64,000 nt of DNA, from the NCBI GenBank assembly GCA_030609135.1, contig JAUWCU010000003.1, positions 55 through 64,054 on the forward strand, read 5' to 3'. Below, in pieces: positions 1-62,876 of the stretch. The stretch's first letter is position 1; every line of letters begins with the position of its first letter. The stretch is from Candidatus Stahliibacteriota bacterium (lineage in GTDB: Bacteria > Hydrothermota > Tepidihabitantia > SM23-42). A model generated the notes under the pieces. That model made no database searches, was not told where the DNA came from, and was given only the letters and a program-made list of their open reading frames with translations. The position numbers and the translations under genes are program-made.

Positions 1-2372
1 GTAGCCGTATACGGGAACCCCGAATGATATGAGATTATGAAATCTGTGGAAAAATCCCTTAGTGGACTGAGATAGAAATCATCAGGGAGCATAATTCCAA
101 CGCTTGAATTTACAATGTGTCGTTCATCAAAATCCAACCAGTAATCAATCCGTGGTAAGGCGTATTCACCAGATATTGGATCCGGACCTCCAACATAAAC
201 ATCATAATAATGCTGCCAGGCATAAGAAGCAGTACCTTTGGCAAATTGCAATGTATAGGACAAATCAAAACGCCAGTAATCCAACATCTTTTTCTTGATA
301 GTAAATTCAATACCTTTTACATTACCGTAGTCAACATTCGTAACCTGATAATAAGGATAAGGCTGGGACAGTACCCTACGTGTTTGAATGAGGTCGTAGA
401 TATCTTTGTAATAAGCAACAAAACCAAAGGCAAAAGCATCAGATATTTGATTCTCATAACCCAATTCATAGGCAATTGTTTTTTCAACTGTAAGGTCAGG
501 ATTGCCAAGGACTGAGTTATATCTATGGAGAAGTAACCAGACAACGACCGGATTGGTTGAACGATAGAGGTTGTGTGCTGTGGGGGTTTGAAAGAAATGC
601 CCATAATTGAACCGTAACTTTGATCTCTCGGTAATAGGCATTGAAAATCCGAGACGGGGAGAAAAACGCCATTTAGCTGGGTATTGAACCATGGTTGTGT
701 CATCCATGTCTGAAGGGTTGTTCAAACCACTTGCCTTTGAATCGAAATAGTCGTAGCGAAGACCGATTCGACAAATAATACCTTCAAAATCTACCCTGTC
801 CTGTAAATAGACGGCTATTTTCAAAGGGTTTTTTTCATAAATGTCCCAGAAAGGGATTCTTGCCCAGGGCAGGTTATTGTCAAACCAGCCCACATTTTGA
901 GACATCAGGCTAACCCCGGATTTAACTTCGTGTATTTTAGCGATTGATTTTGTGATAGAAAAAACTCCTTGATAATCACGGTTATATAAATACCTCCAGA
1001 GCCTATTATCGCCTACAGTATAATAAAAACCGGTTGCTCCAAACGGGTTATTTCTTAAACTTGCAGCATTACGCTTACTCCATTCCTCGTAATAATTCAT
1101 CATGGAATCAACAAGATAAAGTTTTATCAAGGAATCATCTTCCATTTCCATTAACAGTTCAGGAAAGTGGTTGGCTTTAAAAATGTAGTCATCATACCAT
1201 TGCCTGTTCGCAGCTGCTTCTGCTTCGAGATCTCTTACTGCGTAAAACCGGATTGATTTTGTGTAACCCAGTTTCGATTCCAAAACAGTATTCTTTGTTA
1301 ACATATAATTAAACGTCACACTGGCGAGATAATTCTTCAGAGTTTCCGCCGTATTACGTTCAAGATTGTATATGAAGCTGAGATTACCCCAGATGTCTTT
1401 GTAGTGTGCGAACTGTTCACGGGAATAGAATCCGGAAAGAGTAACCTTGCCTTTTGCACCGGGCAGACGATAAGATACTTTTCCACCTAACTTGTAATCA
1501 AACCTTTCAGATTGAATTTTATATTTTGCTGCTTCAAACGCATCAGTTATCAGTGCTTCACCCGAGATAAAATATCTAAAACGGGATTTCTCCAATGCTC
1601 CACCCCCGAGGCTTATCTCATAAAGATTGTATCCATAATTTATTTTATCCGAAGCAAAGACCTCGTCGGTAGTATAACGGAATCTGCCACTTGGTTTCGC
1701 AGAGCCTTCACGCGTTATGATGCTAACGATTCCGGATAGAGCTTCACCGTATTCTGCGTCAAAGCCCCCCGTGGTTATTGCAATTTCTTCAACCGCTTGT
1801 TTATTTATTTTCACTGACTGATGACCATAATGCGGTGCTTTAGTGAGTATTCCATCAACATAATAGGCGATTTCTGTATCCCGACCGCCCCGGACATGAA
1901 TTCCTCTTTCACTGGTTGATACACCTGCCTGCAGGGTGATAATTTCGTTAATATCGCTTATCGGCATCATGTCAATATCGTCACCCGTTATGGTCCTCTG
2001 GGTCTGCGTCTGGGTTTTAATAACCAAGGGTCTTTCCGCGTTAACAACTATTGGTTCCATGGTAATTACTGCGGGGCTCAGCGTAAAATTAACAAAAACT
2101 GTCTGGTCGGAAAAAACAATGGTGTTGGATTTCGACACCGTGTTATAACCCAAATAAGACGCGGTTATTGTATGCATACCCACTGGGACAAAAGGTACGA
2201 TGAATTCGCCCTCCAGATCAGTGGCAGCACCCAATTCTGTTTTTTCAATTACGACGTTCACCCCAACTAAGGCTTCGCCATCTTCATCAATTACTTTTCC
2301 TTTTACTTGTCCTGTATTCGATGCTATTACAAAAGAGAAGATTACACAAACCGCGATAAAACATCTCTTCAT
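1..2372 (-). CDS. TonB-dependent outer-membrane receptor with N-terminal CarboxypepD_reg-like domain; C-terminus lies beyond the window edge
   Basis: Not in ORF track (no stop inside window). Hand translation from ATG at 2372 (GGAGGT 4 nt upstream): MKRCFIAVCVIFSFVIASNTGQVKGKVIDEDGEALVGVNVVIEKTELGAATDLEGEF.., then plug-like ..TITGDDIDMMPISDINEIITLQAGV..IHVRGGRDTE..FDAEYGEALSGIVSIITREG. The same frame was checked open at nt 3-116; the middle was not fully verified. Confidence 0.8.
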   Translation of the reverse strand, partial: MKRCFIAVCVIFSFVIASNTGQVKGKVIDEDGEALVGVNVVIEKTELGAATDLEGEFIVPFVPVGMHTITASYLGYNTVSKSNTIVFSDQTVFVNFTLSPAVITMEPIVVNAERPLVIKTQTQTQRTITGDDIDMMPISDINEIITLQAGVSTSERGIHVRGGRDTEIAYYVDGILTKAPHYGHQSVKINKQAVEEIAITTGGFDAEYGEALSGIVSIITREGSAKPSGRFRYTTDEVFASDKINYGYNLYEISLGGGALEKSRFRYFISGEALITDAFEAAKYKIQSERFDYKLGGKVSYRLPGAKGKVTLSGFYSREQFAHYKDIWGNLSFIYNLERNTAETLKNYLASVTFNYMLTKNTVLESKLGYTKSIRFYAVRDLEAEAAANRQWYDDYIFKANHFPELLMEMEDDSLIKLYLVDSMMNYYEEWSKRNAASLRNNPFGATGFYYTVGDNRLWRYLYNRDYQGVFSITKSIAKIHEVKSGVSLMSQNVGWFDNNLPWARIPFWDIYEKNPLKIAVYLQDRVDFEGIICRIGLRYDYFDSKASGLNNPSDMDDTTMVQYPAKWRFSPRLGFSMPITERSKLRFNYGHFFQTPTAHNLYRSTNPVVVWLLLHRYNSVLGNPDLTVEKTIAYELGYENQISDAFAFGFVAYYKDIYDLIQTRRVLSQPYPYYQVTNVDYGNVKGIEFTIKKKMLDYWRFDLSYTLQFAKGTASYAWQHYYDVYVGGPDPISGEYALPRIDYWLDFDERHIVNSSVGIMLPDDFYLSPLRDFSTDFIISYHSGFPYTA

Positions 2373-2392
2373 ACTTACCTCCAATTATAAAT

Positions 2393-2420
2393 ATATTAAC
2401 AAAAAATATACTTAAGTCAA
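2393..2420 (-). promoter_or_regulatory. sigma70-type promoter of the TonB receptor gene
   Basis: Minus strand reads TTGACT-N16-TAATAT, followed by a 20-nt leader with GGAGGT. Confidence 0.55.
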
Positions 2421-2451
2421 GACCCAATAATCAAACGACCGAGAATTAAAA

Positions 2452-2514
2452 GTAGGGCATTTAAGCCCAGTATATCTCGAAGTTTTGAAGATGTGAGGCT
2501 CAGAACCTCTGAAC
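2452..2514 (+). repeat. 63-nt repeat unit (GTAGGGC hairpin + TTTGAAGATGTGAGGCTCAGAACCTCTGAAC); second copy at 24992..25054
   Basis: Near-identical 3' half in both copies, read by eye. The 5' part is a GTAG-headed hairpin: gtagggcatttaagccc vs gtaggggctttagcccc. Confidence 0.8.
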
Positions 2515-2529
2515 AGATTGTTTAATAGC

Positions 2530-2652
2530 TGTAGTTGTCCAATTCATTGGACTGCCCGATAAATCCCGCAATCCTATTTATAGAATCTTGATACGAAACG
2601 GGATAAATCCCGCAATTCTATTTATAAAATCTTAATACGAAGCGGGATAAAT
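2530..2652 (+). repeat. Composite repeat: GTAG-headed hairpin (tgtagttgtccaattcattggac) followed by two overlapping tandem copies of a 51-nt nested-hairpin unit (2558..2608, 2602..2652)
   Basis: Unit is GATAAATCCCGC-aattctatttatagaatt-ataatacga-aGCGGGATAAAT: outer stem atcccgc/gcgggat, inner stem aattcta/tagaatt. Six copies in the window: 2558, 2602, 8377, 29639, 32243 and 36744 (reverse). Confidence 0.85.
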
Positions 2653-2737
2653 CATCTGTCTGCCTCAGGCTGAGGCGACTACAATTGATTGAATCATAAG
2701 TGATTGGAAGTCACGCTGGCGCTGTGATTGTTAAAAA

Positions 2738-2797
2738 GGGAGAGGGAAAAAGCCTGCTCTGAACCTTGTGCTGAATATCATTTCAGTATTGTTTCAG
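2738..2797 (+). repeat. ~58-nt repeat GGGAGrGrAAAAAGCyTGCyCTGAACCTTGTGCTGAATATCATTTCAGTATTGTTTCAG; inverted copy at 25566..25622
   Basis: The reverse complement of 25566..25622 matches this stretch with a few substitutions. Confidence 0.8.
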
Positions 2798-2838
2798 AGG
2801 TGAGGGATAAAGATGTGTTCAAGTTTCTGTTATTAGTA

Positions 2839-2866
2839 TTGACATAAGAGAAGCGCTAATTATAAT
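2839..2866 (+). promoter_or_regulatory. sigma70-type promoter of the 856-aa hydrolase gene
   Basis: TTGACA (2839)-N16-TATAAT (2861), 14 nt before ATG 2881. A conserved box GGGATAAAGATGTGTTCAAGTTTCT (2804..2828) lies 10 nt upstream of the -35. Confidence 0.65.
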
Positions 2867-2880
2867 CATTATACGGTCAT

Positions 2881-5451
2881 ATGAATTATCATATTATTTT
2901 AGTGCTTTTCATAAATAATCTTTCATTTATCCCTGGTATTAACGATACAATTACAATACACCAGTGGCAATATCTGGGTCCTTTTTCAATGGGGATGCGT
3001 GAGGGGATCATCGGCGTCGAGGAAAATATTAGACTTCTTGAGGATTTTGAGCCAGATAAAAGGTCGATATATCCAAGTCTTCTCGTGCAGGGCGGCAAAG
3101 TCATGTGGCGAACAATAGAATCTGCTAATGGAATAGTTAAGATCGAATATGAAAATGTCTTATGGGATAGTATTCAGGATTATTATGGTGCTGCCGGAGT
3201 TCTCTGCGGCGCTTATGCCTACGGTGATTTTAGTAGCGGCAGCACAAGGAGAGCATTGGTTATTGCACAAGATGTTTCTTCCTTCATCTTGAACGGCGTG
3301 AAATTCCCGGGTGATCCCTATAGCAATGGATTTTTGCAGGTCCCGGTTGTTCTAAACGAGGGAAAGAACAGAGTAATAGTCAAACTCAGCGGGTTTGGGG
3401 ACCATGAATTCACATTTAAACTCATCCCCGTACCAGGTCCTTTAATGTTGATAACCAAAGATATTACTACACCGGATTTTTTAAGGGGTGAACCGGTATG
3501 TGCCTGGGCAGGGATACCGATTGTCAATGCGACAAATCAGAGACTCTTTGATATTCAACTTAAAATAGAAGGCGTGAACATTAAAACAGACATTCAAACG
3601 GTTGCTAATATAATGCCTTTTTCAGCGGTTAAGATACCATTGAACATCGAATCAGAAGATAAAATAGAGACAGAAGAGGATAGCATTCTGATAACTATAA
3701 CGGCTTCCTTTGACACTTTTTCTACACAAGAAGATTTCTGGATCAAAGTGAAGCATAGAGATGAAGCATATGTTAAGACCTTTGTCTCTAATATAGATAA
3801 TTCATGCCAATACTATGCGATTCTGCCACCAGAAAACTATAATGAAGATTCATCTTATGCCCTCATAATGACTTGTCATGGAGCCAGTGTTAAGGCAAGA
3901 GGTCAGGTGAAAGCCTATACACAGAAGGATTGGGCTTTTGTCGTTGCGCCGACTAATCGCCGCAGGTTTGGTTTTGACTGGCAGGATTGGGGTAGACTCG
4001 ATTTTCTTGAGGTTCTGGAAGATGTTAAGAAGAATTTCAAGATTGATACAAATAGAATCTATCTTACTGGACATTCTATGGGTGGCCATGGTGCCTGGCA
4101 TATCGGCATAACCCATCCAGATATCTTCGCGGCAATGGCACCTTCTGCTGGATGGACCAGCTTTCAACTCTATGTCCCGTGGTTTCTTCAAAAAAGTGAG
4201 CTCTTTGCGCATCCTGATCTGATAAAGTATCGCGATATGGTATTGCGACAAGACAATCCGCTTTTATTCCTGGAAAACGCATATAATCTGCCGATCTATA
4301 TCTTGCAAGGCGGAACTGATGACAATGTGCCTCCAATCCAGGCAAGAATGTTCTGCAAATATCTGACCAATCTTGGCTATGATTATATATACAACGAGCT
4401 TGAGGGCAAAGGTCACTGGTGGAATATAGATTCCACGCCAGGTACTGACTGTGTGGATTTAAAAGAAATGATGGATTTTCTGAAAACCAAGGTGCGCAAC
4501 CCCTACCCTGAACGTATAATCTTCAAAACCTCAGATGTTGACTGTTCAAATAAGGCATACTGGGTGAGGATCGATGAACTTGAAAATCTATACCAGGATG
4601 GGATAATAGATATTTGGAAAACTGGAATGATAGGAGATCACACCGTGTTTTCAGTGGGACCACGCATTGGGTTCTTGGTGAAAACGAGCAACATAAACGG
4701 ATTCACCGTAGTATTAAATGATAAGGTTATTCCTAAAAGCATGCTAGGTGGAAAAATATGGTTTGAAATTAATGGTCAAAAAATTGCCTTCGACTATAAA
4801 GAAATAAGCGAAATTTCCTTCCACAAAAACAATGTGGGATTTGAAATCGTCAAACCGAAAGACCAAGGCTTGAAAAAACAGAAAAGGTTTTATGGACCTA
4901 TAAAAAAGGCATATTTTGAGCCTTTTGTTCTTGTCTATGGCACAACTGGAGATTCGGTTTCGACCGAGAACAACCTTCACCAAGCACGATTACAGTCTTA
5001 TACCTGGTGGTATCGGGCAAATGGATTTGTTGAGATACTGCCTGACACTGAAGTTACCGAAAAAATTATCAAAAACTATAACCTTGTTCTCTTTGGGAAT
5101 CCTGTAACTAACTCCATTCTCAAGTGGATTAGCTACAGATTACCTCTTCATATTGAAGAAGGTAGAGTGATTGTTGATAGAGATACAATAAGGGGGGATC
5201 TCTGTCTTGTAGAAATATATCCCAACCCTCTAAACCCTGAAAAATTCGTATTATTATATTCAGCAACTACAAAACCCGCAGAGAAATTAATCGGTCTATT
5301 TTCCACACTTTATGCAGGTGCCGGTTTACCTGATTTTCTTGTTTATGATAAATCAGCGCTTAAATACGGATGGGGTGGTGTAAACGCAGCCGGTTTTTTT
5401 GACAAAGACTGGAAATTTGATAGTAAATTGAGTTACTACTCAGAACCTTAA
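2881..5451 (+). CDS. Large alpha/beta-hydrolase-fold protein (prolyl-oligopeptidase/esterase-like serine hydrolase core) with long unassigned N- and C-terminal regions
   Basis: 856-aa ORF. Nucleophile elbow LTGHSMGGHGAW; later ..YILQGGTDDNVPP.. and ..GKGHWW.. fit Asp/His triad positions. No motif recognised in the first ~330 or last ~300 aa. Confidence 0.6.
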   Translation: MNYHIILVLFINNLSFIPGINDTITIHQWQYLGPFSMGMREGIIGVEENIRLLEDFEPDKRSIYPSLLVQGGKVMWRTIESANGIVKIEYENVLWDSIQDYYGAAGVLCGAYAYGDFSSGSTRRALVIAQDVSSFILNGVKFPGDPYSNGFLQVPVVLNEGKNRVIVKLSGFGDHEFTFKLIPVPGPLMLITKDITTPDFLRGEPVCAWAGIPIVNATNQRLFDIQLKIEGVNIKTDIQTVANIMPFSAVKIPLNIESEDKIETEEDSILITITASFDTFSTQEDFWIKVKHRDEAYVKTFVSNIDNSCQYYAILPPENYNEDSSYALIMTCHGASVKARGQVKAYTQKDWAFVVAPTNRRRFGFDWQDWGRLDFLEVLEDVKKNFKIDTNRIYLTGHSMGGHGAWHIGITHPDIFAAMAPSAGWTSFQLYVPWFLQKSELFAHPDLIKYRDMVLRQDNPLLFLENAYNLPIYILQGGTDDNVPPIQARMFCKYLTNLGYDYIYNELEGKGHWWNIDSTPGTDCVDLKEMMDFLKTKVRNPYPERIIFKTSDVDCSNKAYWVRIDELENLYQDGIIDIWKTGMIGDHTVFSVGPRIGFLVKTSNINGFTVVLNDKVIPKSMLGGKIWFEINGQKIAFDYKEISEISFHKNNVGFEIVKPKDQGLKKQKRFYGPIKKAYFEPFVLVYGTTGDSVSTENNLHQARLQSYTWWYRANGFVEILPDTEVTEKIIKNYNLVLFGNPVTNSILKWISYRLPLHIEEGRVIVDRDTIRGDLCLVEIYPNPLNPEKFVLLYSATTKPAEKLIGLFSTLYAGAGLPDFLVYDKSALKYGWGGVNAAGFFDKDWKFDSKLSYYSEP

Positions 5452-5498
5452 ATAGTTTAATTTGATAGTTCTCCATAGCTTGCTACAGAGTTTCTTCT

Positions 5499-5578
5499 GT
5501 CATTCCCTGGCTTGACCAGGGAATCCAGGAAAATAAGGAAATACAAAAGACTGGATTCCGCCTCAGGTGCGGAATGAC
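5499..5578. repeat. 80-nt double-hairpin palindromic element between convergent genes (possible bidirectional terminator)
   Basis: GTCATTCC-ctggcttgaccag-GGAATCCAG ... CTGGATTCC-gcctcaggtgc-GGAATGAC. A related unit lies at 32418..32447. Confidence 0.7.
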
Positions 5579-5645
5579 GACATACATTGAGCAGTATTTG
5601 ATTAAACTATTTAATGTTCTCCGTAATATATTGAGGATTGAGCAT

Positions 5646-8434: not shown

Positions 8435-10987
8435 CTACTCAATTTTGGTTTTCAGGAAATCAATTGCTTCTGCGACCTTTTTTGGATCGCCACCGCCGCC
8501 TTCTGCCATATGGGGTCGACCACCACCCCCGCCGCCAAGGATTTTGCTGACATCTTTGATGAGCTTGTTAGCAGGGTATTTTTTTACTAATTCATCGCCG
8601 ACAAATATTAAGAAGTTAATTTTACCCTTTGTCTTCTCATAGAAAAAACCCGCTGCTTTTTTAGATTTTTCTCTTATTAAATCAGCTACCAGACGCATTC
8701 CCTGACCCCCATAATTTTTGAGTTCTTTTGCGACAAAATTGCTTTTTTCCTCCCACATTTTAGCAAGTAGAACCATTGCTTCACTGTGTGTGAGTTGAGC
8801 AAGGGCTTCCTGGAAAGATTTCTCTGTTTCCTTGAATTTCTGTAGCGAATCAGAAATCCAGCTAACCAAATCGACATTCTTCCCGCCGACCAAATTTGTG
8901 ATTTCCTTGAGAATAGTTTCGTTCTTACGCAATTCCTCAAATAGCCTCAAGCCGACAATTGCTTCTACCCTACGTATACCAGCAGCTGCAGCTTCCTGCG
9001 AGATAATTTTGAAGAGACCAATTTGACCGGTATTATCAAGGTGGATCCCTCCACAGAGTTCAATTGAGAAATCATTGATCTTAACCACCCTGACTTTATC
9101 ACCATATTTCTCGCCGAATATCGCCATTGCACCGAGTCGCTTTGCTTCATCCAATGTTGTATTGAATTTTTCAACGGGTATATTGTCCAGGACCTTTTCG
9201 TTTACTGTATTTTCAATGACATTGATTTCATCGTTGCTCAACGGCTTAAAGTGCGAAAAGTCAAAACGGAACCTTCCTGGTTCAACAAATGAACCTTCCT
9301 GGCGGGCATGTTCGCCAAGGGTTTTCCTGAGCGCAGCATGGAGTAGATGGGTTGCCGTATGCGCACGCGCGCTTTCTTTGCGTTTCCTTAAATCTACCTC
9401 AGCAACAACTTTGCCAGGTGTAAACTTACCTTGAGCAAGTTTGCAATGGCATACAATCATGCCCTGGTACCAGTAAGTATCCTGGACTATCAATTTATAG
9501 GTTTTTCCGACAATTTCACCTTGGTCGCCTACTTGACCTCCAGCCTCAGCGTAAAAAGGTGATTCTTTTAATACTATCTCAATGATCTTTTCATGCGCAT
9601 TGAATTTTATTATTTTGGTTTCAACGCTGACTTTATCGTAACCAACGAATGTGCCATTTTCATCGTTTAAGATAGTCCACTCACCCTTGGGAATGAATTT
9701 TGTTTCTGCTTTTGAGATCTCGCGGGCTTGTTCAAGCTTAGCCATGAAGCCTTTTTCATCAACACTAATACCTTTTTCCTTGGCTATTTCCTGAATTAAT
9801 TCAATGGGGAATCCGTATGTGTCATAGAGCTTGAAAGCTTCTTCTCCAGAAATGGAGTTGTGGGTTTTGCTTATTACTTCAAATTGCTGTAATCCTTTTT
9901 CCAACGTGGTTAGAAATCGTTCTTCTTCTGATTTTATAATAAGAGTAATTTCTTCTCTTCTTTCAACTAAATCAGCATATGCAGGTTTATACATATCTAT
10001 AACCCTCGGTACAAACCTGTAGAGAAAAGGGTTGTTTATAGCCAGATTTCGACACAATCGGACAGCCCTACGTAAAATCCTTCGTAGCACATACCCGCGT
10101 TCTTCATTTGAAGGGATAATACCATCACCTATTGCAAAGACTAATGCCCTGACGTGGTCTGCCATCACATTGATAGCTACATCAATTCTTCTATCTTCAC
10201 CATATTTCAAATTCTTGTGTTTAATAATATCCTCAATAATAGGATAAAACAGGTCGGTCTGAAAAACCGAGTCCTTATTTTGCAGGATCGCTGCAAGTCT
10301 TTCAAAACCCATGCCCGTATCCACCCCGCGGTTCTTTAGAGGTAATCTTTCGCCGGCTACGGTCTGGTTAAACTGGGGGAATACCAGATTCCAGATTTCC
10401 GGATACCGGTCGCAGTCGCAGCCCGGTACACAAGTTTTCTTACCGCAGGAATATTTCTCGCCAAGGTCAAAAAATATTTCTGAGCATGGTCCACATGGTC
10501 CAGAATTCCCCGCCGGTCCCCAGAAGTTATCCTCATCACCAAACCTGAAGATTCTTTCTTTTTTCAAACCAATCTTCTTATGCCAGATATCATATGCCTC
10601 ATCATCATCCTTATATACTGAGACAGACAATCTGGTCGGGTCGATTCCCAGTACCTCAAGCAGGTATTCCCATGCCCATAAAATAGCCTCTTCCTTAAAA
10701 TAGTCGCCAAATGAAAAATTGCCCAGCATTTCAAAGAACGTATGGTGGCGTCTGGTCTTTCCCACATTATCTAAATCCGATGTCCTGAAACATTTTTGCA
10801 CACTTGTTGCGCGTTTATACGGCAGGAGCACAGAGCCTGTCCACAAAGGTTTAAACTGCACACAGCCGGCACTTGTGAACAATAGACTCGGGTCATCTTT
10901 CGGAATCAATGACATTGAAGGAACAATAGTATGGTCCTTGTTTTTAAAGAATTCTAAGAAACTCGTGCGCAGTTCGTTACTATTCAT
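8435..10987 (-). CDS. alaS: alanine--tRNA ligase
   Basis: 850 aa. Motifs HHTFFEMLGNFSFGDYFK, editing-domain HTATHLLHAALR and C-terminal GGGGGRPHMAEGGG. Confidence 0.97.
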   Translation of the reverse strand: MNSNELRTSFLEFFKNKDHTIVPSMSLIPKDDPSLLFTSAGCVQFKPLWTGSVLLPYKRATSVQKCFRTSDLDNVGKTRRHHTFFEMLGNFSFGDYFKEEAILWAWEYLLEVLGIDPTRLSVSVYKDDDEAYDIWHKKIGLKKERIFRFGDEDNFWGPAGNSGPCGPCSEIFFDLGEKYSCGKKTCVPGCDCDRYPEIWNLVFPQFNQTVAGERLPLKNRGVDTGMGFERLAAILQNKDSVFQTDLFYPIIEDIIKHKNLKYGEDRRIDVAINVMADHVRALVFAIGDGIIPSNEERGYVLRRILRRAVRLCRNLAINNPFLYRFVPRVIDMYKPAYADLVERREEITLIIKSEEERFLTTLEKGLQQFEVISKTHNSISGEEAFKLYDTYGFPIELIQEIAKEKGISVDEKGFMAKLEQAREISKAETKFIPKGEWTILNDENGTFVGYDKVSVETKIIKFNAHEKIIEIVLKESPFYAEAGGQVGDQGEIVGKTYKLIVQDTYWYQGMIVCHCKLAQGKFTPGKVVAEVDLRKRKESARAHTATHLLHAALRKTLGEHARQEGSFVEPGRFRFDFSHFKPLSNDEINVIENTVNEKVLDNIPVEKFNTTLDEAKRLGAMAIFGEKYGDKVRVVKINDFSIELCGGIHLDNTGQIGLFKIISQEAAAAGIRRVEAIVGLRLFEELRKNETILKEITNLVGGKNVDLVSWISDSLQKFKETEKSFQEALAQLTHSEAMVLLAKMWEEKSNFVAKELKNYGGQGMRLVADLIREKSKKAAGFFYEKTKGKINFLIFVGDELVKKYPANKLIKDVSKILGGGGGGRPHMAEGGGGDPKKVAEAIDFLKTKIE

Positions 10988-21190: not shown

Positions 21191-21317
21191 GTAATTGTTC
21201 AATTTTCAGTGGAGAAGCGTAGTTGCGACATTTATGGCGTCTATTTATGTGGCATATCGAGACTTTCTGCACGATGAATCGTGCGACTACAATGTTCCAC
21301 CAAGTTTTGAACAATTA
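21191..21317 (+). mobile_element. 127-nt MITE-like element with terminal inverted repeats (copy 1)
   Basis: GTAATTGTTCAAtttt...gttttGAACAATTAC termini. The inside has GTAG-headed gtagttgcgacatttatggcg and inverted tgcacgatgaatcgtgcgactac. A second copy lies at 62661..62818. Confidence 0.75.
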
Positions 21318-21326
21318 CTTAGCCTC

Positions 21327-21360: not shown

Positions 21361-22773
21361 ATGAAGAACATAGTATATATAGTTCTATCAGTAATTTTGG
21401 TCGTGAATTGTAGTGAAATGGAGACCAAGTGGGAAGTAAAATTCGAACCAGCAGGTCCAGGTAATTATCGAATCAATGGGATTTCTTCTTCAAAGACATA
21501 TACTACTCCAGACAACTACGACCACCGAGTCAAAGGAGTTCCTTGTTCAAGGACACATTCTTATGTTGTTACTGGGGCATTTTGGGAAGATAAGCAGGAA
21601 TCAGTCTGCATTACTGCAAACTATGATGCTAATGGTGAACTCATCTGGCACACAGTCTATGAATCGCATGGCTTGAAATCTTCGAAAGGAAATGCTATCC
21701 GTACCATCACAGGTGAAATTGAAGAGGTTAAACATGACATTTATGTACTAGCACAAACCACTGACTTAAAAGGTATCAACGCCGTAGTCCTGATACAATA
21801 TGACAGCCTTGGTAATATGCAATGGGACAAGGTTATTGAAAAATCCCGAGGAGAGATAACGAGTGTATTGCTGAACGACCACTTGAATAACCTCTATATA
21901 GCGGGCTGGACAAGTAATTCCGCAAATTCTACAGATATCTTCATTGCCAAATATCGACCTTCAGGAGAACTGGCTTGGTTGAACAAATATCATAACCCTC
22001 CTCTTGTTTTTAATACCTTAGTGTTTTGCTCTAGCAAGAATGACCAGTTTCTGGTTGCCGGTCATCTGAGACATAACAAGGATTTCTTTTTCATGAAATA
22101 TGATAGCCTTGGGAAACTTGTGCATCTGACAAAGTGCGAAACTTCTATGCAGGAGATTTCATTGGCAGATGCACAACTTGATGAACATGGTAATGTTTAT
22201 CTTCTGGGCACAACCCACAACAATAAAACTGGCAAGGATTACGTAACTGTAGTCTATGATAAAAACGACAGTCTCCTATTTGAGAAATGCTTTGATGGAC
22301 CAACGCATCATGACGATGTCGCCAATGCCTTGATTGTGGAGGATTCGTACGCGGGGTCATTGTATGTCTATGCTATCGGCAGCAGTGAGAACGAAAATGG
22401 CGTGAGTGAAGTGCTTACCGTGAAATATGATCTAACCGGCAACGAAATATGGACAAAAGCATTCAAGGGGAGAAAAAACGAATCAGCAAAACCCTATCTG
22501 CACGGTCCCAGAATAATCTATTCTCCAACACAGCACGGCGTCAATAATTTCTACATAACCGGATATGTGGGCGATGATGCATTGGTTTTGAAACACAATA
22601 CTAAAGGATTTATTTCCTGGTTTACAAGATACGCAAAGGTTGGCACAGTATGCAAGCCAACCGCATTCAGAAGTTTCTGCGTTGGTATAGAAAGCGTGTC
22701 AGATAAGGGGTCTGATGCATACTTAATAAAATTCGGAAAAACTGAACAGCTCGGCATTATCCGCTGGGATTAA
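21361..22773 (+). CDS. Lipoprotein with beta-propeller-type repeats
   Basis: Lipobox-like MKNIVYIVLSVILVVNC. Recurrent ..KYDxxGxxxW.. strands (IQYDSLGNMQW, AKYRPSGELAW, VKYDLTGNEIW). Confidence 0.5.
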   Translation: MKNIVYIVLSVILVVNCSEMETKWEVKFEPAGPGNYRINGISSSKTYTTPDNYDHRVKGVPCSRTHSYVVTGAFWEDKQESVCITANYDANGELIWHTVYESHGLKSSKGNAIRTITGEIEEVKHDIYVLAQTTDLKGINAVVLIQYDSLGNMQWDKVIEKSRGEITSVLLNDHLNNLYIAGWTSNSANSTDIFIAKYRPSGELAWLNKYHNPPLVFNTLVFCSSKNDQFLVAGHLRHNKDFFFMKYDSLGKLVHLTKCETSMQEISLADAQLDEHGNVYLLGTTHNNKTGKDYVTVVYDKNDSLLFEKCFDGPTHHDDVANALIVEDSYAGSLYVYAIGSSENENGVSEVLTVKYDLTGNEIWTKAFKGRKNESAKPYLHGPRIIYSPTQHGVNNFYITGYVGDDALVLKHNTKGFISWFTRYAKVGTVCKPTAFRSFCVGIESVSDKGSDAYLIKFGKTEQLGIIRWD

Positions 22774-32404: not shown

Positions 32405-32578
32405 TAAGTACCATTCTGTCATTGCCTGGCTTGACCAGGCAATCCAGAATACCTATTCCGGGATCATTCGGCTAAACCGTATGATGACGACTAAAAATTT
32501 TTTGGATTTGATCATTGGAATTTGTTTAAGATTTAGAATTTTGATTTTGGGATTTACCGAACGAAGTGAGGTGTCATT

Positions 32579-60110: not shown

Positions 60111-61346
60111 TTATTTTTTTGAAAAAAACCTTCTGATTACTTTCAAATCATCGGATATATTATCTATAAACCTACTAACAGTTTTGTGAGAACTGGGATT
60201 CGCTTTATAGTCATGTATGTATTCAAAAAGGAATGCAAGGAACACATTACCAAAGATTGACAAGAAGAAAGCGAATAGAACAATTTTCATTCGTTTGGGG
60301 AAACTTCTTTTTTCAGGCGGTGAAGCGCGATCTAAAAACTGGACTGTCGGTGTATCCTTTAATTCCATTAGCTTAGCCTGTTCGTATTGTTGTGTTAATA
60401 ATTCATAAATTACTGATTGAACTTCAACGTCACGTAATAACCGAGCATATTCAAGGGAAACCTCTGGAAGCTTTGAAAAAGGTACAGCAAAACCAGCTCC
60501 AAATGCCTTTTTAATCGTATCCTGGTCTCCAAATTCGATTTTTAATAGTTGATTTTTAAATTCTTTTAATTCTTTATTTATATCGTACAAATAGGGATTA
60601 TTGAATCGCGAAGAGGAAGATAGCACTCCTTTTTTAACTTCTAGGAGAATTATCTGACTTTTTAATTCGGCGATGGTTTGAATTGCAGTTATGATTTCTT
60701 CTTCAAGAGCGATAGTGTGATGTTCTTCTTGGAAACTTCTTAGAGCTTCCTCTGTCTGTTTTAGGGTATCGATATTGCCTTTTAATCTTTGCTCAATAAA
60801 TATGCGATATTTCTTTCCAGTCGTCATCGCTGTTTCAGTATTGAATTTGTCAAGCTCTTCAATAAAGGAGTTAGCTATATCAGCGGCCAGGTATTTATTC
60901 TTGTAAGTTATACTCACCGAAATAATTCCTTCAGGACTAACAGCGATCGTGGTAATTTCATCCAATGCTTTCATTGCATCGGTCATTGTTTTGGTTTTGA
61001 ATTCCTTCATCAAATTATTCTTATGAATTACCTGACTTTTAATACGACCGCTATTTAAGATAGCGGCATATAAGTCCGACGGACTTGTTAGACCAGGTAT
61101 GCCACTTGTTAATCTTGATAGATTTGCTATACTTGATGGCATATTAGATGTAAACATTCCCAACATCATTGATTGGTCAGAAGTCGGAGGTAAGGTTGTT
61201 GCGGTGGCAGAATATTGATGTACTAATAGGAGGCTTATTATTGCAGCAGTAATTACAACTGCTATTGAATTACGATAGAAATACTTACGGTATTTCAGGA
61301 TGATTAACCAATATTCTGACGGCTTTGATTTTTTAGTAACGGTCAT
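60111..61346 (-). CDS. wzz: polysaccharide chain-length determinant (Wzz/PCP family)
   Basis: Start moved to ATG 61346 (MTVTKKSKPSEYWLIILKYRKYF..). N-terminal and C-terminal TM helices flank a long coiled-coil periplasmic region. Confidence 0.7.
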   Translation of the reverse strand: MTVTKKSKPSEYWLIILKYRKYFYRNSIAVVITAAIISLLLVHQYSATATTLPPTSDQSMMLGMFTSNMPSSIANLSRLTSGIPGLTSPSDLYAAILNSGRIKSQVIHKNNLMKEFKTKTMTDAMKALDEITTIAVSPEGIISVSITYKNKYLAADIANSFIEELDKFNTETAMTTGKKYRIFIEQRLKGNIDTLKQTEEALRSFQEEHHTIALEEEIITAIQTIAELKSQIILLEVKKGVLSSSSRFNNPYLYDINKELKEFKNQLLKIEFGDQDTIKKAFGAGFAVPFSKLPEVSLEYARLLRDVEVQSVIYELLTQQYEQAKLMELKDTPTVQFLDRASPPEKRSFPKRMKIVLFAFFLSIFGNVFLAFLFEYIHDYKANPSSHKTVSRFIDNISDDLKVIRRFFSKK

Positions 61347-61354
61347 ATCTAGAT

Positions 61355-61382
61355 AGTATAATAAAATTAGTACCGAAGTCAA
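61355..61382 (-). promoter_or_regulatory. wzz promoter
   Basis: Minus strand reads TTGACT-N16-TATACT, 8 nt before ATG 61346. Confidence 0.55.
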
Positions 61383-61411
61383 TACGTCAACATCACTAAT
61401 CTGGTCTTGAC

Positions 61412-61497
61412 TTTTTTTGAATAATATCTGTAGTGTTAGAATACGATATGGGATTAATATCTTTGAGGAGGATTTTTGGGCGATCAAGGATACGTTA
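61412..61497. repeat. ~86-nt direct repeat, left copy (partner at 62512..62598)
   Basis: tttttttgaataatatctgtagtgttagaatacgatatgggattaatatctttgaggaggatttttgggcgatcaaggatacgtta. About nine-tenths identical to the right copy by eye. Confidence 0.85.
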
Positions 61498-61618
61498 AAC
61501 CGTCTCTTGCAAGATACCAATGCATAAACAACTTTTCGTTGATCAAAAAAACCGTTTTCGGTATTGTAAATATGTATGTACTTGCGGATTTCATGGGATG
61601 AATAAAGGCGGAATATTA

Positions 61619-62038
61619 TTAGGTAGATTCTAAGTAATTTACAATTGCTTGGGCAAAGCTATTGAAATCAGCTAATTGATTCTGTAGGATATCATAAACC
61701 TGATTGGGATCAGTATAAAGATAATTATGCACTAAAATGTTTCTAAAACTAACCATACCTTTAATTTTCTTAATCAATTCTTCTGGCAACACGCCATTTT
61801 TGCCTAAAACAACAAAGATATTTTCCTGTTCATCTGGCACTAATAGATTTTGTCCAGCAATAATGTAATTAGCAATGTCAATACAGGTTTGCATAGCTAC
61901 CTGAAAATTTCTTTCAGCAATATCCTGGTAATCTTGATTATTGGTATATTCATCCTTTGATATTCGTTGAATTCTTTTCAGCCTTGATACGGCATGATCG
62001 AGTTTTTTTAATCGCACCTCAATAACCTTTTTATCCAA
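61619..62038 (-). CDS. hepT: HepT-type (DUF86) ribonuclease toxin
   Basis: 139 aa; Rx4HxY motif FRNILVHNY near the C-terminus; overlaps the upstream MNT gene by 8 nt. Confidence 0.85.
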   Translation of the reverse strand: MDKKVIEVRLKKLDHAVSRLKRIQRISKDEYTNNQDYQDIAERNFQVAMQTCIDIANYIIAGQNLLVPDEQENIFVVLGKNGVLPEELIKKIKGMVSFRNILVHNYLYTDPNQVYDILQNQLADFNSFAQAIVNYLEST

Positions 62039-62453
62039 TGCCTACCTCTTTGATTTTTTTCTTTAAATACCTTGAATGAAACTCAAAATATTTCTTATAA
62101 TCGTAATACAATCCCATTGAATATGCTTGGAATAGCGCCCTTTTGTTTTCATCTTTCTCATAAATTAATTGTCCCTTTTCAAAAACCTGGGCCCTTAAAA
62201 GTAGATTTGCAAAGTTCAAAATTACAAGGTCAACTTTTCCTTTTAATAGCTCCATTAAATCTGTACTAAGATTCATTCGATAGAACAGTGGATTCTCTAT
62301 TTTCTTTTCATTAATCAATAGCGCGATATCAATGTCACTATCTTTTCTTTGTTTCTTTTCAACTACTGAACCAAATAAATAAGCCGAATAAATTTCAGGT
62401 TTTGTAGTAAAATATTTCCGGAGTTTTTCAGTTATTTCCAGTTGGAATTTCAT
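62031..62453 (-). CDS. mntA: MNT-type nucleotidyltransferase antitoxin
   Basis: LFGSVVEKKQRKDSDIDIALL (GS-x10-DxD). Confidence 0.85.
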   Translation of the reverse strand: MKFQLEITEKLRKYFTTKPEIYSAYLFGSVVEKKQRKDSDIDIALLINEKKIENPLFYRMNLSTDLMELLKGKVDLVILNFANLLLRAQVFEKGQLIYEKDENKRALFQAYSMGLYYDYKKYFEFHSRYLKKKIKEVGIG

Positions 62454-62459
62454 AAAGAA

Positions 62460-62487
62460 ATTGTATTCAATTTAATAGTGAAGTCAA
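62460..62487 (-). promoter_or_regulatory. mntA-hepT promoter; leaderless-type spacing
   Basis: Minus strand reads TTGACT-N16-TACAAT, 6 nt before ATG 62453. Confidence 0.55.
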
Positions 62488-62511
62488 GGTAGAACCCACA
62501 TTCTATTTAGA

Positions 62512-62598
62512 TTTTTTTTGATAATATCTGTAATATTTGAATAAAAGATGGGATTAATATCTTTCAAGGAGGATTTTTGGGCGATCAATGATACGTTA
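62512..62598. repeat. ~86-nt direct repeat, right copy
   Basis: ttttttttgataatatctgtaatatttgaataaaagatgggattaatatctttcaaggaggatttttgggcgatcaatgatacgtta. Confidence 0.85.
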
Positions 62599-62660
62599 TG
62601 ATTCAATTGGTTCTTTGATAGAGCGGCAATGATCATAATGGTTGGGATGATATGTTACAT

Positions 62661-62818
62661 GTAACTGTTCAATTTTCGGTGGAAACTTGTAGTTGCGACA
62701 TTTATGGCGCATATTTGTTTTAAATTTCAAGACATTTTGCACGATGAATCGTGCGACTACACCCCGCCATTTTGTAAAAGAGCGGGGTACATTAGTCCAC
62801 CAAGTTTTGAACAGTTAC
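62661..62818 (+). mobile_element. MITE-like element copy 2 (158 nt) carrying a nested hairpin insertion
   Basis: GTAACTGTTCAAtttt...gttttGAACAGTTAC termini. Same internal gtagttgcgacatttatggcg / tgcacgatgaatcgtgcgactac as copy 1. Extra accccgccattttgtaaaagagcggggt at 62761..62788. Confidence 0.75.
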
Positions 62819-62827
62819 TGTTGTCTC

Positions 62828-62855
62828 TTGACATAGATTCCATATTCTGTATAAT
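62828..62855 (+). promoter_or_regulatory. abiEi-abiEii promoter
   Basis: TTGACA-N16-TATAAT, starting 10 nt after the MITE-like element. Confidence 0.6.
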
Positions 62856-62876
62856 TTTATACAGAAGAAGGGAACT

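Follow-up and report, generated by a model that had tools for sequence, protein, structure and literature searches.

The hepT and mntA genes near the right end of a 64-kb stretch from a Candidatus Stahliibacteriota bacterium (assembly GCA_030609135.1, contig JAUWCU010000003.1; positions 1–64000, below called the window) encode a type VII toxin-antitoxin (TA) system and are bracketed by two direct repeats, a left and a right copy. By homology, these repeats are decayed pseudogene fragments derived from the start of mglB, a gene of the Roadblock/LC7 family, and comprise its promoter and first codons. The comparison with related loci indicates that they are probably mglB starts left behind by the serial recombination of accessory cassettes beside mglB. 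What the repeats are and how they have decayed is established, as are the conserved architecture in relatives and the dispensability of the right copy and of the partial copy distal to mglB; the order of events and the mechanism of recombination we infer.

Identity and decay of the repeats

Local alignment of positions 61412–61497 with 62512–62598 (blastn against the window, E 2.4e-17) gave 88.5% identity over 87 columns with one 1-nt indel, in good agreement with the nine-tenths identity and single indel estimated by eye in an earlier, sequence-only reading of this DNA. A repeat finder returned the same pair, split in two pieces. Both copies lie on the plus strand, and wzz, hepT and mntA are encoded on the minus strand. 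No third copy was found in the window by blastn. A 20-mer from the best-conserved block of the repeat had three genome matches, two of which were GC-rich chance matches and one true, in a WOR-3 metagenome-assembled genome (L006; the labels L001–L036 denote contigs of relatives, and the comparison covers about 20 related WOR-3-type contigs). A metagenome scan with the repeat 20-mer yielded just one match, a chance one at 67% GC. The search for further copies that the sequence-only reading had proposed thus ended with two copies in 64 kb and a sole true genome relative that is itself a gene start, and an identity as a common dispersed repeat or miniature inverted-repeat transposable element (MITE) was rejected on these grounds.

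The true match in L006 falls at the start of a 164-aa Roadblock/LC7 gene, which is followed by a gene for an MglA-like small GTPase, a small open reading frame (ORF) and dnaE. With a WOR-3 MglB as tblastn query, the left copy of the window matched at 75% over 28 aa (residues 1–28) and the right copy at 61% over 18 aa, and neither mglA nor additional mglB sequence was found in the window. The MglB query has 944 homologues; PF03259 is present in 120/120 of those listed, most of the named ones are from WOR-3, and among those listed the N-terminus is strongly conserved (MREGINIFEEDFWAI(N/T)D.LNRLLQGTNAR). An nhmmer profile covering mglB from -60 to +495 in nine relatives aligned to both copies, with window positions 61401–61553 corresponding to profile positions 19–171 (left copy, E 6e-24) and 62512–62597 to positions 30–116 (right copy, E 3e-10). 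The sigma-70-type mglB promoter of the relatives (CTTGACT, 16–17 nt, TATAAT, about 8 nt, ATG) likewise aligns with both copies. The features of the bracketed region are as follows.

61401–61553, plus strand: left copy, pseudo-mglB fragment with promoter and ~37 codons; contains the repeat 61412–61497
61554–61618, no strand: spacer from the end of the pseudo-mglB fragment to the hepT stop (3' flank of the TA cassette); 92% identical in L021, partly present in L028
61619–62038, minus strand: hepT, HEPN RNase toxin, 139 aa (PF01934 E 7.2e-31; motif RX4HXY as RNILVHNY)
62031–62453, minus strand: mntA, MNT nucleotidyltransferase antitoxin, 140 aa (PF18765 E 1.8e-24; motif GSX10DXD as GSVVEKKQRKDSDID)
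62460–62487, minus strand: promoter-like site of mntA, TTGACT, 16 nt, TACAAT (-35 at 62487–62482; 10/12 consensus; ATG 6 nt past the -10)
62489–62598, plus strand: right copy, remnant of a divergent mntA-mglB intergenic region with mglB codons 1–18; contains the repeat 62512–62598

The role of the repeats as boundaries of the TA cassette, claimed in the sequence-only reading, is upheld and recurs in relatives (see below), but their extents are larger than had been proposed, with homology from 61401 to 61553 on the left and from about 62489 on the right.

Read on the plus strand, the left copy translates as IRYGINIFEEDFWAIKDTLNRLLQDTNA and the right copy as MGLISFKEDFWAINDTL, each followed by a stop. 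The start codon ATG has changed to ATA in both (61441–61443 and 62541–62543). The promoter of the left copy keeps its -35 box TTGACT (61407–61412) and has a -10 box mutated to TGTAGT (61429–61434); that of the right copy is decayed in both boxes (-35 TTTAGA, 62506–62511; -10 TGTAAT, 62529–62534). Further downstream, the left reading frame meets a TAA stop at 61525–61527 (codon 29), with a 2-nt insertion beyond it, and the right one carries a +1 insertion near 62565 before its mglB homology ends abruptly at 62598 (codon 18). Since neither copy retains an intact frame, both are fragments and not genes; an intact mglB frame of about 164 aa with a following mglA is absent from the window. The left flank of the right copy (62489–62511) corresponds by orthology to the region between mntA and mglB in L025 and L028, from which it follows that the right copy is an mglB start that formerly adjoined mntA.

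Other identities of the repeat were considered and rejected. There was no fold signal of a structured RNA on either strand of either copy (z -0.32 to +1.05 versus shuffled sequences), and a comparison of the repeat with Rfam gave only chance-level matches, none better than E 4.8. An integron attC site was discarded on the lack of a hairpin in the same folds and of a GTTRRRY/RYYYAAC pair at the two ends. A conserved small ORF was equally discarded, as the minus-strand frames break at the indel, and a 41-aa ORF on the plus strand (61476–61601) is an out-of-frame read of the mglB fragment.

The mglB locus in relatives

In every locus fetched, mglB is followed by mglA, a gene of ~96 aa, dnaE and, further downstream, OsmC, and the content upstream of mglB varies. 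The upstream arrangements are listed below.

L009–L012: polysaccharide locus upstream of mglB, homologous to window 52–61 kb in a different gene order; no partial mglB
L014, L019: S9 esterase upstream of mglB, with an orthologue at window 2881–5451; no partial mglB
L021/L022 (MntA 93% identical to that of the window): intact mglB, abiEii-abiEi, mntA-hepT, GT2 gene; partial mglB (profile 30–165) just past hepT
L023: same strain type as L021/L022, short contig from mglB to mntA; ends before the position of the distal copy
L024: same strain type as L021/L022, short contig from mntA to the GT2 gene; partial mglB present
L025/L026 (MntA 86%): intact mglB ~92 nt from the divergent mntA-hepT, UPF0175 gene, polysaccharide locus; partial mglB (profile 15–183) at the polysaccharide edge
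L027 (MntA 86%): mntA-hepT diverges from an intact mglB; the sequence stops just past hepT, before the position of the distal copy
L028: TA pair adjoining mglB; no distal partial mglB
L029: no TA pair, GT2 gene upstream; partial mglB 13 nt before the intact mglB promoter
L036 (MntA 88%, HepT 90%): intact mglB ~92 nt from the divergent mntA-hepT, UPF0175 gene, polysaccharide locus; partial mglB (profile 23–183) at the polysaccharide edge

An mglB start on one side of the TA pair and a partial mglB on the other thus recur in L021, L022 and L024, in L025 and L026, and in L036, so that the proposed tie between bracket and TA pair extends to relatives; it is broken in L028, which has the TA pair without a distal copy. 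A single mglB start is mostly the rule in loci without the TA pair (L009–L014, L019). In L029, positions 5285–5436 hold a pseudo-mglB start (profile positions 19–159) with the promoter and ~33–36 codons, of which the start codon is lost. As in the window, abiEi-abiEii lies between mntA and the mglB side in L021–L023, the nearest relatives, where mglB is intact. L022 and the window-identical contig L001 derive from the same JGI sample (3300040951).

The spacer between abiEii and mglB (340 nt, L021 8160–8500) varies by strain, with deletions of ~190 nt and ~90 nt (L023; L007 1424–1534). L023 and L029, which are independent variants, share an end point, the AAGACTTAAGCGTCTAAC flank immediately before the mglB -35 box.

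These comparisons bear on an alternative offered in the sequence-only reading, in which the 86-mer is a cis-regulatory module (an operator, UP element or leader) shared by the promoters of wzz and mntA. The TTGACT promoter-like sites upstream of the two genes are indeed found on the minus strand where that reading had placed them, with a 10/12 consensus each; both have TTGACTTC, and each repeat copy lies 24–29 nt upstream of the -35 box. However, the sequence of the repeat is accounted for by the start of a coding gene on the opposite strand, it has no Rfam match and no fold signal, and the copies, which carry an indel, show their greatest divergence at the place where an operator should be conserved. 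In L021 the mntA promoter is 97% identical to that of the window despite the lack of the right copy, and the gene and flank to the left of the left copy differ. Together with the lack of a distal copy in L028, this makes the 86-mer dispensable as a regulatory module, and we regard a shared module as scarcely credible. Both hexamers of the mntA promoter are conserved in L021, L024, L025 and L028. The promoter-like stretch of wzz is 48% identical to L021 and not common to both. A link of the TA system to the control of capsule or chain length, which had been proposed on the basis of the shared repeats, finds no support; the position of wzz is held by a GT2 gene in L021.

At the promoter-like sites of mntA (62460–62453) and wzz (61355–61346) and at the mglB of relatives (L013 373–414; L006 6500–6468), a sigma-70-like -10 box lies 6–9 nt before the ATG, with no Shine-Dalgarno sequence. 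This suggests that leaderless transcripts may be common in this WOR-3-type lineage.

Proposed displacement of mglB starts and its alternatives

The outer flanks of the two copies contain the following features.

60111–61346, minus strand: wzz-like gene (GNVR/Wzz chain-length determinant, 411 aa; PF13807 E 1.4e-8, PF02706 E 3e-4), which ends the polysaccharide locus on this side
61355–61382, minus strand: promoter-like site of wzz, TTGACT, 16 nt, TATACT (-35 at 61382–61377; 10/12 consensus; ATG 8 nt past the -10)
62599–62656, no strand: left end of the AbiE cassette, 98% identical to L021 9951–9889
62657–62818, no strand: MITE-like hairpin insertion with 23-nt terminal inverted repeats (GTAACTGTTCAA..GGTGGA); fold -65.6 kcal/mol, z = -8.4
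62877–63458, plus strand: abiEi (weak PF13338 match in the abiE pair)
from 63458, cut by the window end at 64000, plus strand: abiEii (PF08843 E 4e-24 in the abiE pair)

Across 61420–62488 the window is 90% identical to L021, which implies that the left copy and its junction with the 3' flank of hepT are common to both and old. To the left of 61420 the two are unrelated, with wzz in the window and a GT2 glycosyltransferase gene in L021, so that the breakpoint lies inside the left copy. On the other side, the right copy is fused at 62598 to the end of the AbiE cassette (GATACGTTA directly followed by TGATTC); L021 has the same cassette end without ~91 nt of the right copy, keeping only CGTAA there. 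Identity to L021 amounts to 91–94% in hepT and mntA and 73% in the left copy, compared with 97–99% in abiEi-abiEii, after which the intact mglB of L021 starts at a distance of 340 nt. This mosaic identity (62594–64000 versus 61420–62488) suggests that strains living side by side in the same samples recently exchanged the AbiE-mglB side. Over the shared 87 nt, the left copy is 84% identical to the intact mglB of L021 and 87% to the right copy. The 3' ends of the fragments differ (codons 18, ~37 and ~43), the right-side breakpoint in L021 lies upstream of the promoter, and no core motif is common to them. The genes called up to ~10 kb from the cassettes of the window, L021, L025 and L036 include neither an integrase nor a recombinase; the sole rve-type transposase seen is that of L036, inside the polysaccharide locus beside wzz and ~4 kb from the partial mglB copy.

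In this lineage, mglB heads a conserved mglB-mglA-(96 aa)-dnaE block that borders the variable polysaccharide region. In the history that we favour, cassettes would have recombined in at the 5' edge of this block at least twice, each cutting off the resident start and bringing a new promoter and mglB 5' end, by which mglB would stay intact. The first event would be the arrival of mntA-hepT, with the left fragment (promoter and ~37 codons) left by the polysaccharide locus, and the second the arrival of abiEi-abiEii at codon 18 of the mglB copy then beside mntA, with the right fragment left behind. The displaced starts would subsequently have decayed through loss of the ATG, weaker promoter boxes at -10 and -35, and the gain of a stop codon and of frameshifts. 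The sequence-only reading had preferred insertion with duplication, which holds as the best explanation once the site is moved: the insertion would have taken place at or into mglB, not between wzz and its control region, and the duplicated unit is the promoter and 5' coding part of a divergent mglB on the other strand instead of a control region of wzz.

As the mechanism we favour homology-facilitated illegitimate recombination (HFIR) or an equivalent single-crossover integration. Incoming DNA with a cassette and a promoter-mglB segment would pair with the resident mglB-mglA-dnaE at one end, and its non-homologous end would join illegitimately within the resident mglB start, producing the order resident start, cassette, incoming start and rest of mglB; the homologous side would lie outside the window. 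HFIR is an established reaction (PMC3240628) and has been put forward to account for the sequential displacement arrays found at type VI secretion system (T6SS) and Rhs loci (PMC5361080). Displacement is favoured here by the lack of a recombinase beside the cassettes, the scattered junctions, the short overlap at the right junction, the step in identity and the presence of two strain variants in one sample. An intact 164-aa mglB is predicted just to the right of 64000, ~0.3–0.8 kb past the abiEii stop, where a MITE-like copy would be followed by ...GAAGACTTAAGCGTCTAAC-TCTTGACT..TATAAT..ATGAGAGATGGGATAAAT..., mglA, the 96-aa gene and dnaE.

Several observations count against this history. The genome's own intact mglB was not observed, since the window stops at 64000; contigs retrieved with abiEi were all shorter than 2 kb, and the only extension, 324 nt in L007 (to ~64324), ends in another MITE-like repeat. 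No donor was found for the wzz side, the nearest Wzz homologue elsewhere being 67% identical. The overlap at the right junction, CGT(T/A)A, measures 3–5 nt and is not significant alone. The copies group by genome and not by position (87% between the left and right copies of the window, 93% between the distal and intact copies of L025), which makes histories with a single origin and with repeated origins inseparable. This grouping and the two inactivating changes common to both copies indicate that the left and right copies were probably homogenised in part by gene conversion, and with sequences as short as these (87–150 nt) a tree cannot order the events. Finally, the partial copy of L029, 13 nt before the intact promoter with nothing between, fits equally well with a duplication that preceded the cassettes or with the later deletion of a cassette.

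The former of these two possibilities, a tandem partial duplication of the mglB start, produced by unequal or illegitimate recombination, whose harmless gap between dead and live start was afterwards used as a landing site by the TA and AbiE cassettes, is rather unlikely but the most serious of the alternatives. The empty arrangement that it calls for is seen in L029, where the pseudo-mglB lies by the GT2 gene and no cassette is present, and the 3' junction there (codon ~35–36) is near that of the left copy in the window and L021 (codon ~37). Against this, L029 could equally be a deletion derivative, as another deletion, in L023, stops at that same AAGACTTAAGCG flank; the TA pair of L028 adjoins mglB without a distal copy; and the right copy, cut at codon 18 and fused to the AbiE end, would require a second, separate duplication.

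A site-specific integrase offers another route to such a bracket. The repeats would then be attL/attR duplications with attB in the 5' end of mglB, and the cassettes remnants of, or mobilised by, integrative elements that carry a replacement start. Repeated insertion at one gene start, with the target gene restored each time, would be accommodated by this model and resembles the accretion of islands at the ends of tRNA or protein genes. It is nevertheless improbable, given that no integrase or recombinase was called near the cassettes, the fragment ends differ without a common core motif, and the repeat has no hairpin or attC-like structure. We consider it similarly improbable that the 5' edge of mglB serves as a site dedicated to capture, at which an unseen recombination function or the retained pseudo-promoters make the stacking of TA and abortive-infection (Abi) cassettes regulated and integron-like; the pseudo-promoters point antisense into hepT-mntA and sense into abiEi.

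Surrounding elements and comparison with known systems

The MITE-like element at 62657–62818 has a second copy at window 21191–21318. L021 and L024 lack it at the orthologous position (empty site ...TGTTGC followed by CTCTTGACA), which gives it the appearance of a MITE. Its insertion came later and is unrelated to the mglB repeats. Both copies of this ~160-nt element stand directly upstream of a CTCTTGACA -35 box, one before abiEi, for which a promoter-like site TTGACA/TATAAT is found at 62828–62855, and one before a 470-aa gene at 21361. The Logan contigs L002, L003 and L007 break inside an element of this type. A second candidate MITE with inverted repeats TTAAATAGTTTAAT / ATTAAACTATTTAA lies at window 5445–5625, just past the stop of the S9 esterase gene, and a 34-nt piece of it recurs at 32414–32447. 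The end of L007 (~window 64300) is the start of another MITE-like copy of this second type, between abiEii and the predicted mglB.

The abiE region also varies among co-occurring strains. L022 has a 93-nt deletion across the abiEi region (L022 3870/3871, window 63202–63294), and its called AbiEi and AbiEii are shorter, with 162 and 220 aa. Position 63201, the boundary of this deletion, is exactly where the window-identical JGI contig L001 ends. In the polysaccharide locus of L036, an rve-family transposase gene (8489–9844, equal to L034 4489–5844) immediately precedes the wzz homologue that is closest (67%) to the one in the window. At the left end of the window (1–5451), a TonB-dependent-receptor-like gene and the gene of an 856-aa S9 esterase have orthologues that directly precede mglB in the more distant L014 and L019. 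In the window this synteny is interrupted by ~56 kb including alaS, thi4 and a two-component system; a single inserted island at 5.5–61 kb was rejected in view of these genes, and the interval reflects ordinary loss of synteny.

On sequence features, the TA pair is an ordinary member of the HepT/MntA family: both domains and both catalytic motifs are present, and the genes form the antitoxin-first operon usual for type VII systems (PMC7641770), with an overlap of 8 nt. In these systems MntA is described as AMPylating HepT and neutralising its RNase activity (PMC7641770). The only particular feature of the pair in this genome is its setting between two copies of an mglB start.

The closest parallels to this setting are the T6SS effector-immunity arrays of Vibrio cholerae and the orphan arrays of Rhs and contact-dependent inhibition loci, in which a conserved gene likewise acts as homologous anchor, modules displace the resident end, and orphan pieces stand in a row with no integrase (PMC5361080). 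Here, in contrast, the displaced piece is the promoter and 5' end of a housekeeping polarity gene rather than the 3' tip of a toxin or an immunity gene, TA and Abi cassettes make up the modules, the host is an uncultured WOR-3-type bacterium, and the mechanism is deduced from scars alone. Integrase islands resemble this locus in that direct repeats copied from part of the target gene bracket the insert, and in that a replacement end keeps the target intact; they differ from it in that here no integrase is seen, no crossover core is common, the fragments vary in length, and the cassettes measure just 1–2 kb. As in the swapping of O-antigen and capsule loci, the polysaccharide locus varies in content and order next to a conserved mglB side, with the L021 breakpoint at 61420 in the left copy, but the flank in use here appears to be a pseudogene fragment of mglB and not a live gene.

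The repeats are therefore ordinary recombination scars, displaced gene ends beside inserted DNA, of a generally known kind. Particular to this case are that the 5' start of a gene was displaced together with its promoter, that one gene was affected at least twice, and that the cargo consists of TA and Abi cassettes by a polysaccharide locus in an uncultured lineage. The finding removes a tempting link between a type VII TA system and the control of capsule or chain length, and brackets of this kind should be checked on the opposite strand for the start of a neighbouring gene. It also points to a recombination hotspot in an uncultured phylum, where the boundary between mglB-mglA-dnaE and the polysaccharide locus has collected TA and abortive-infection cassettes, each event being recorded by a displaced start. 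Strain variants of this hotspot coexist in one metagenome (L001 and L022) and may provide material for the study of integrase-free gene gain in natural populations.

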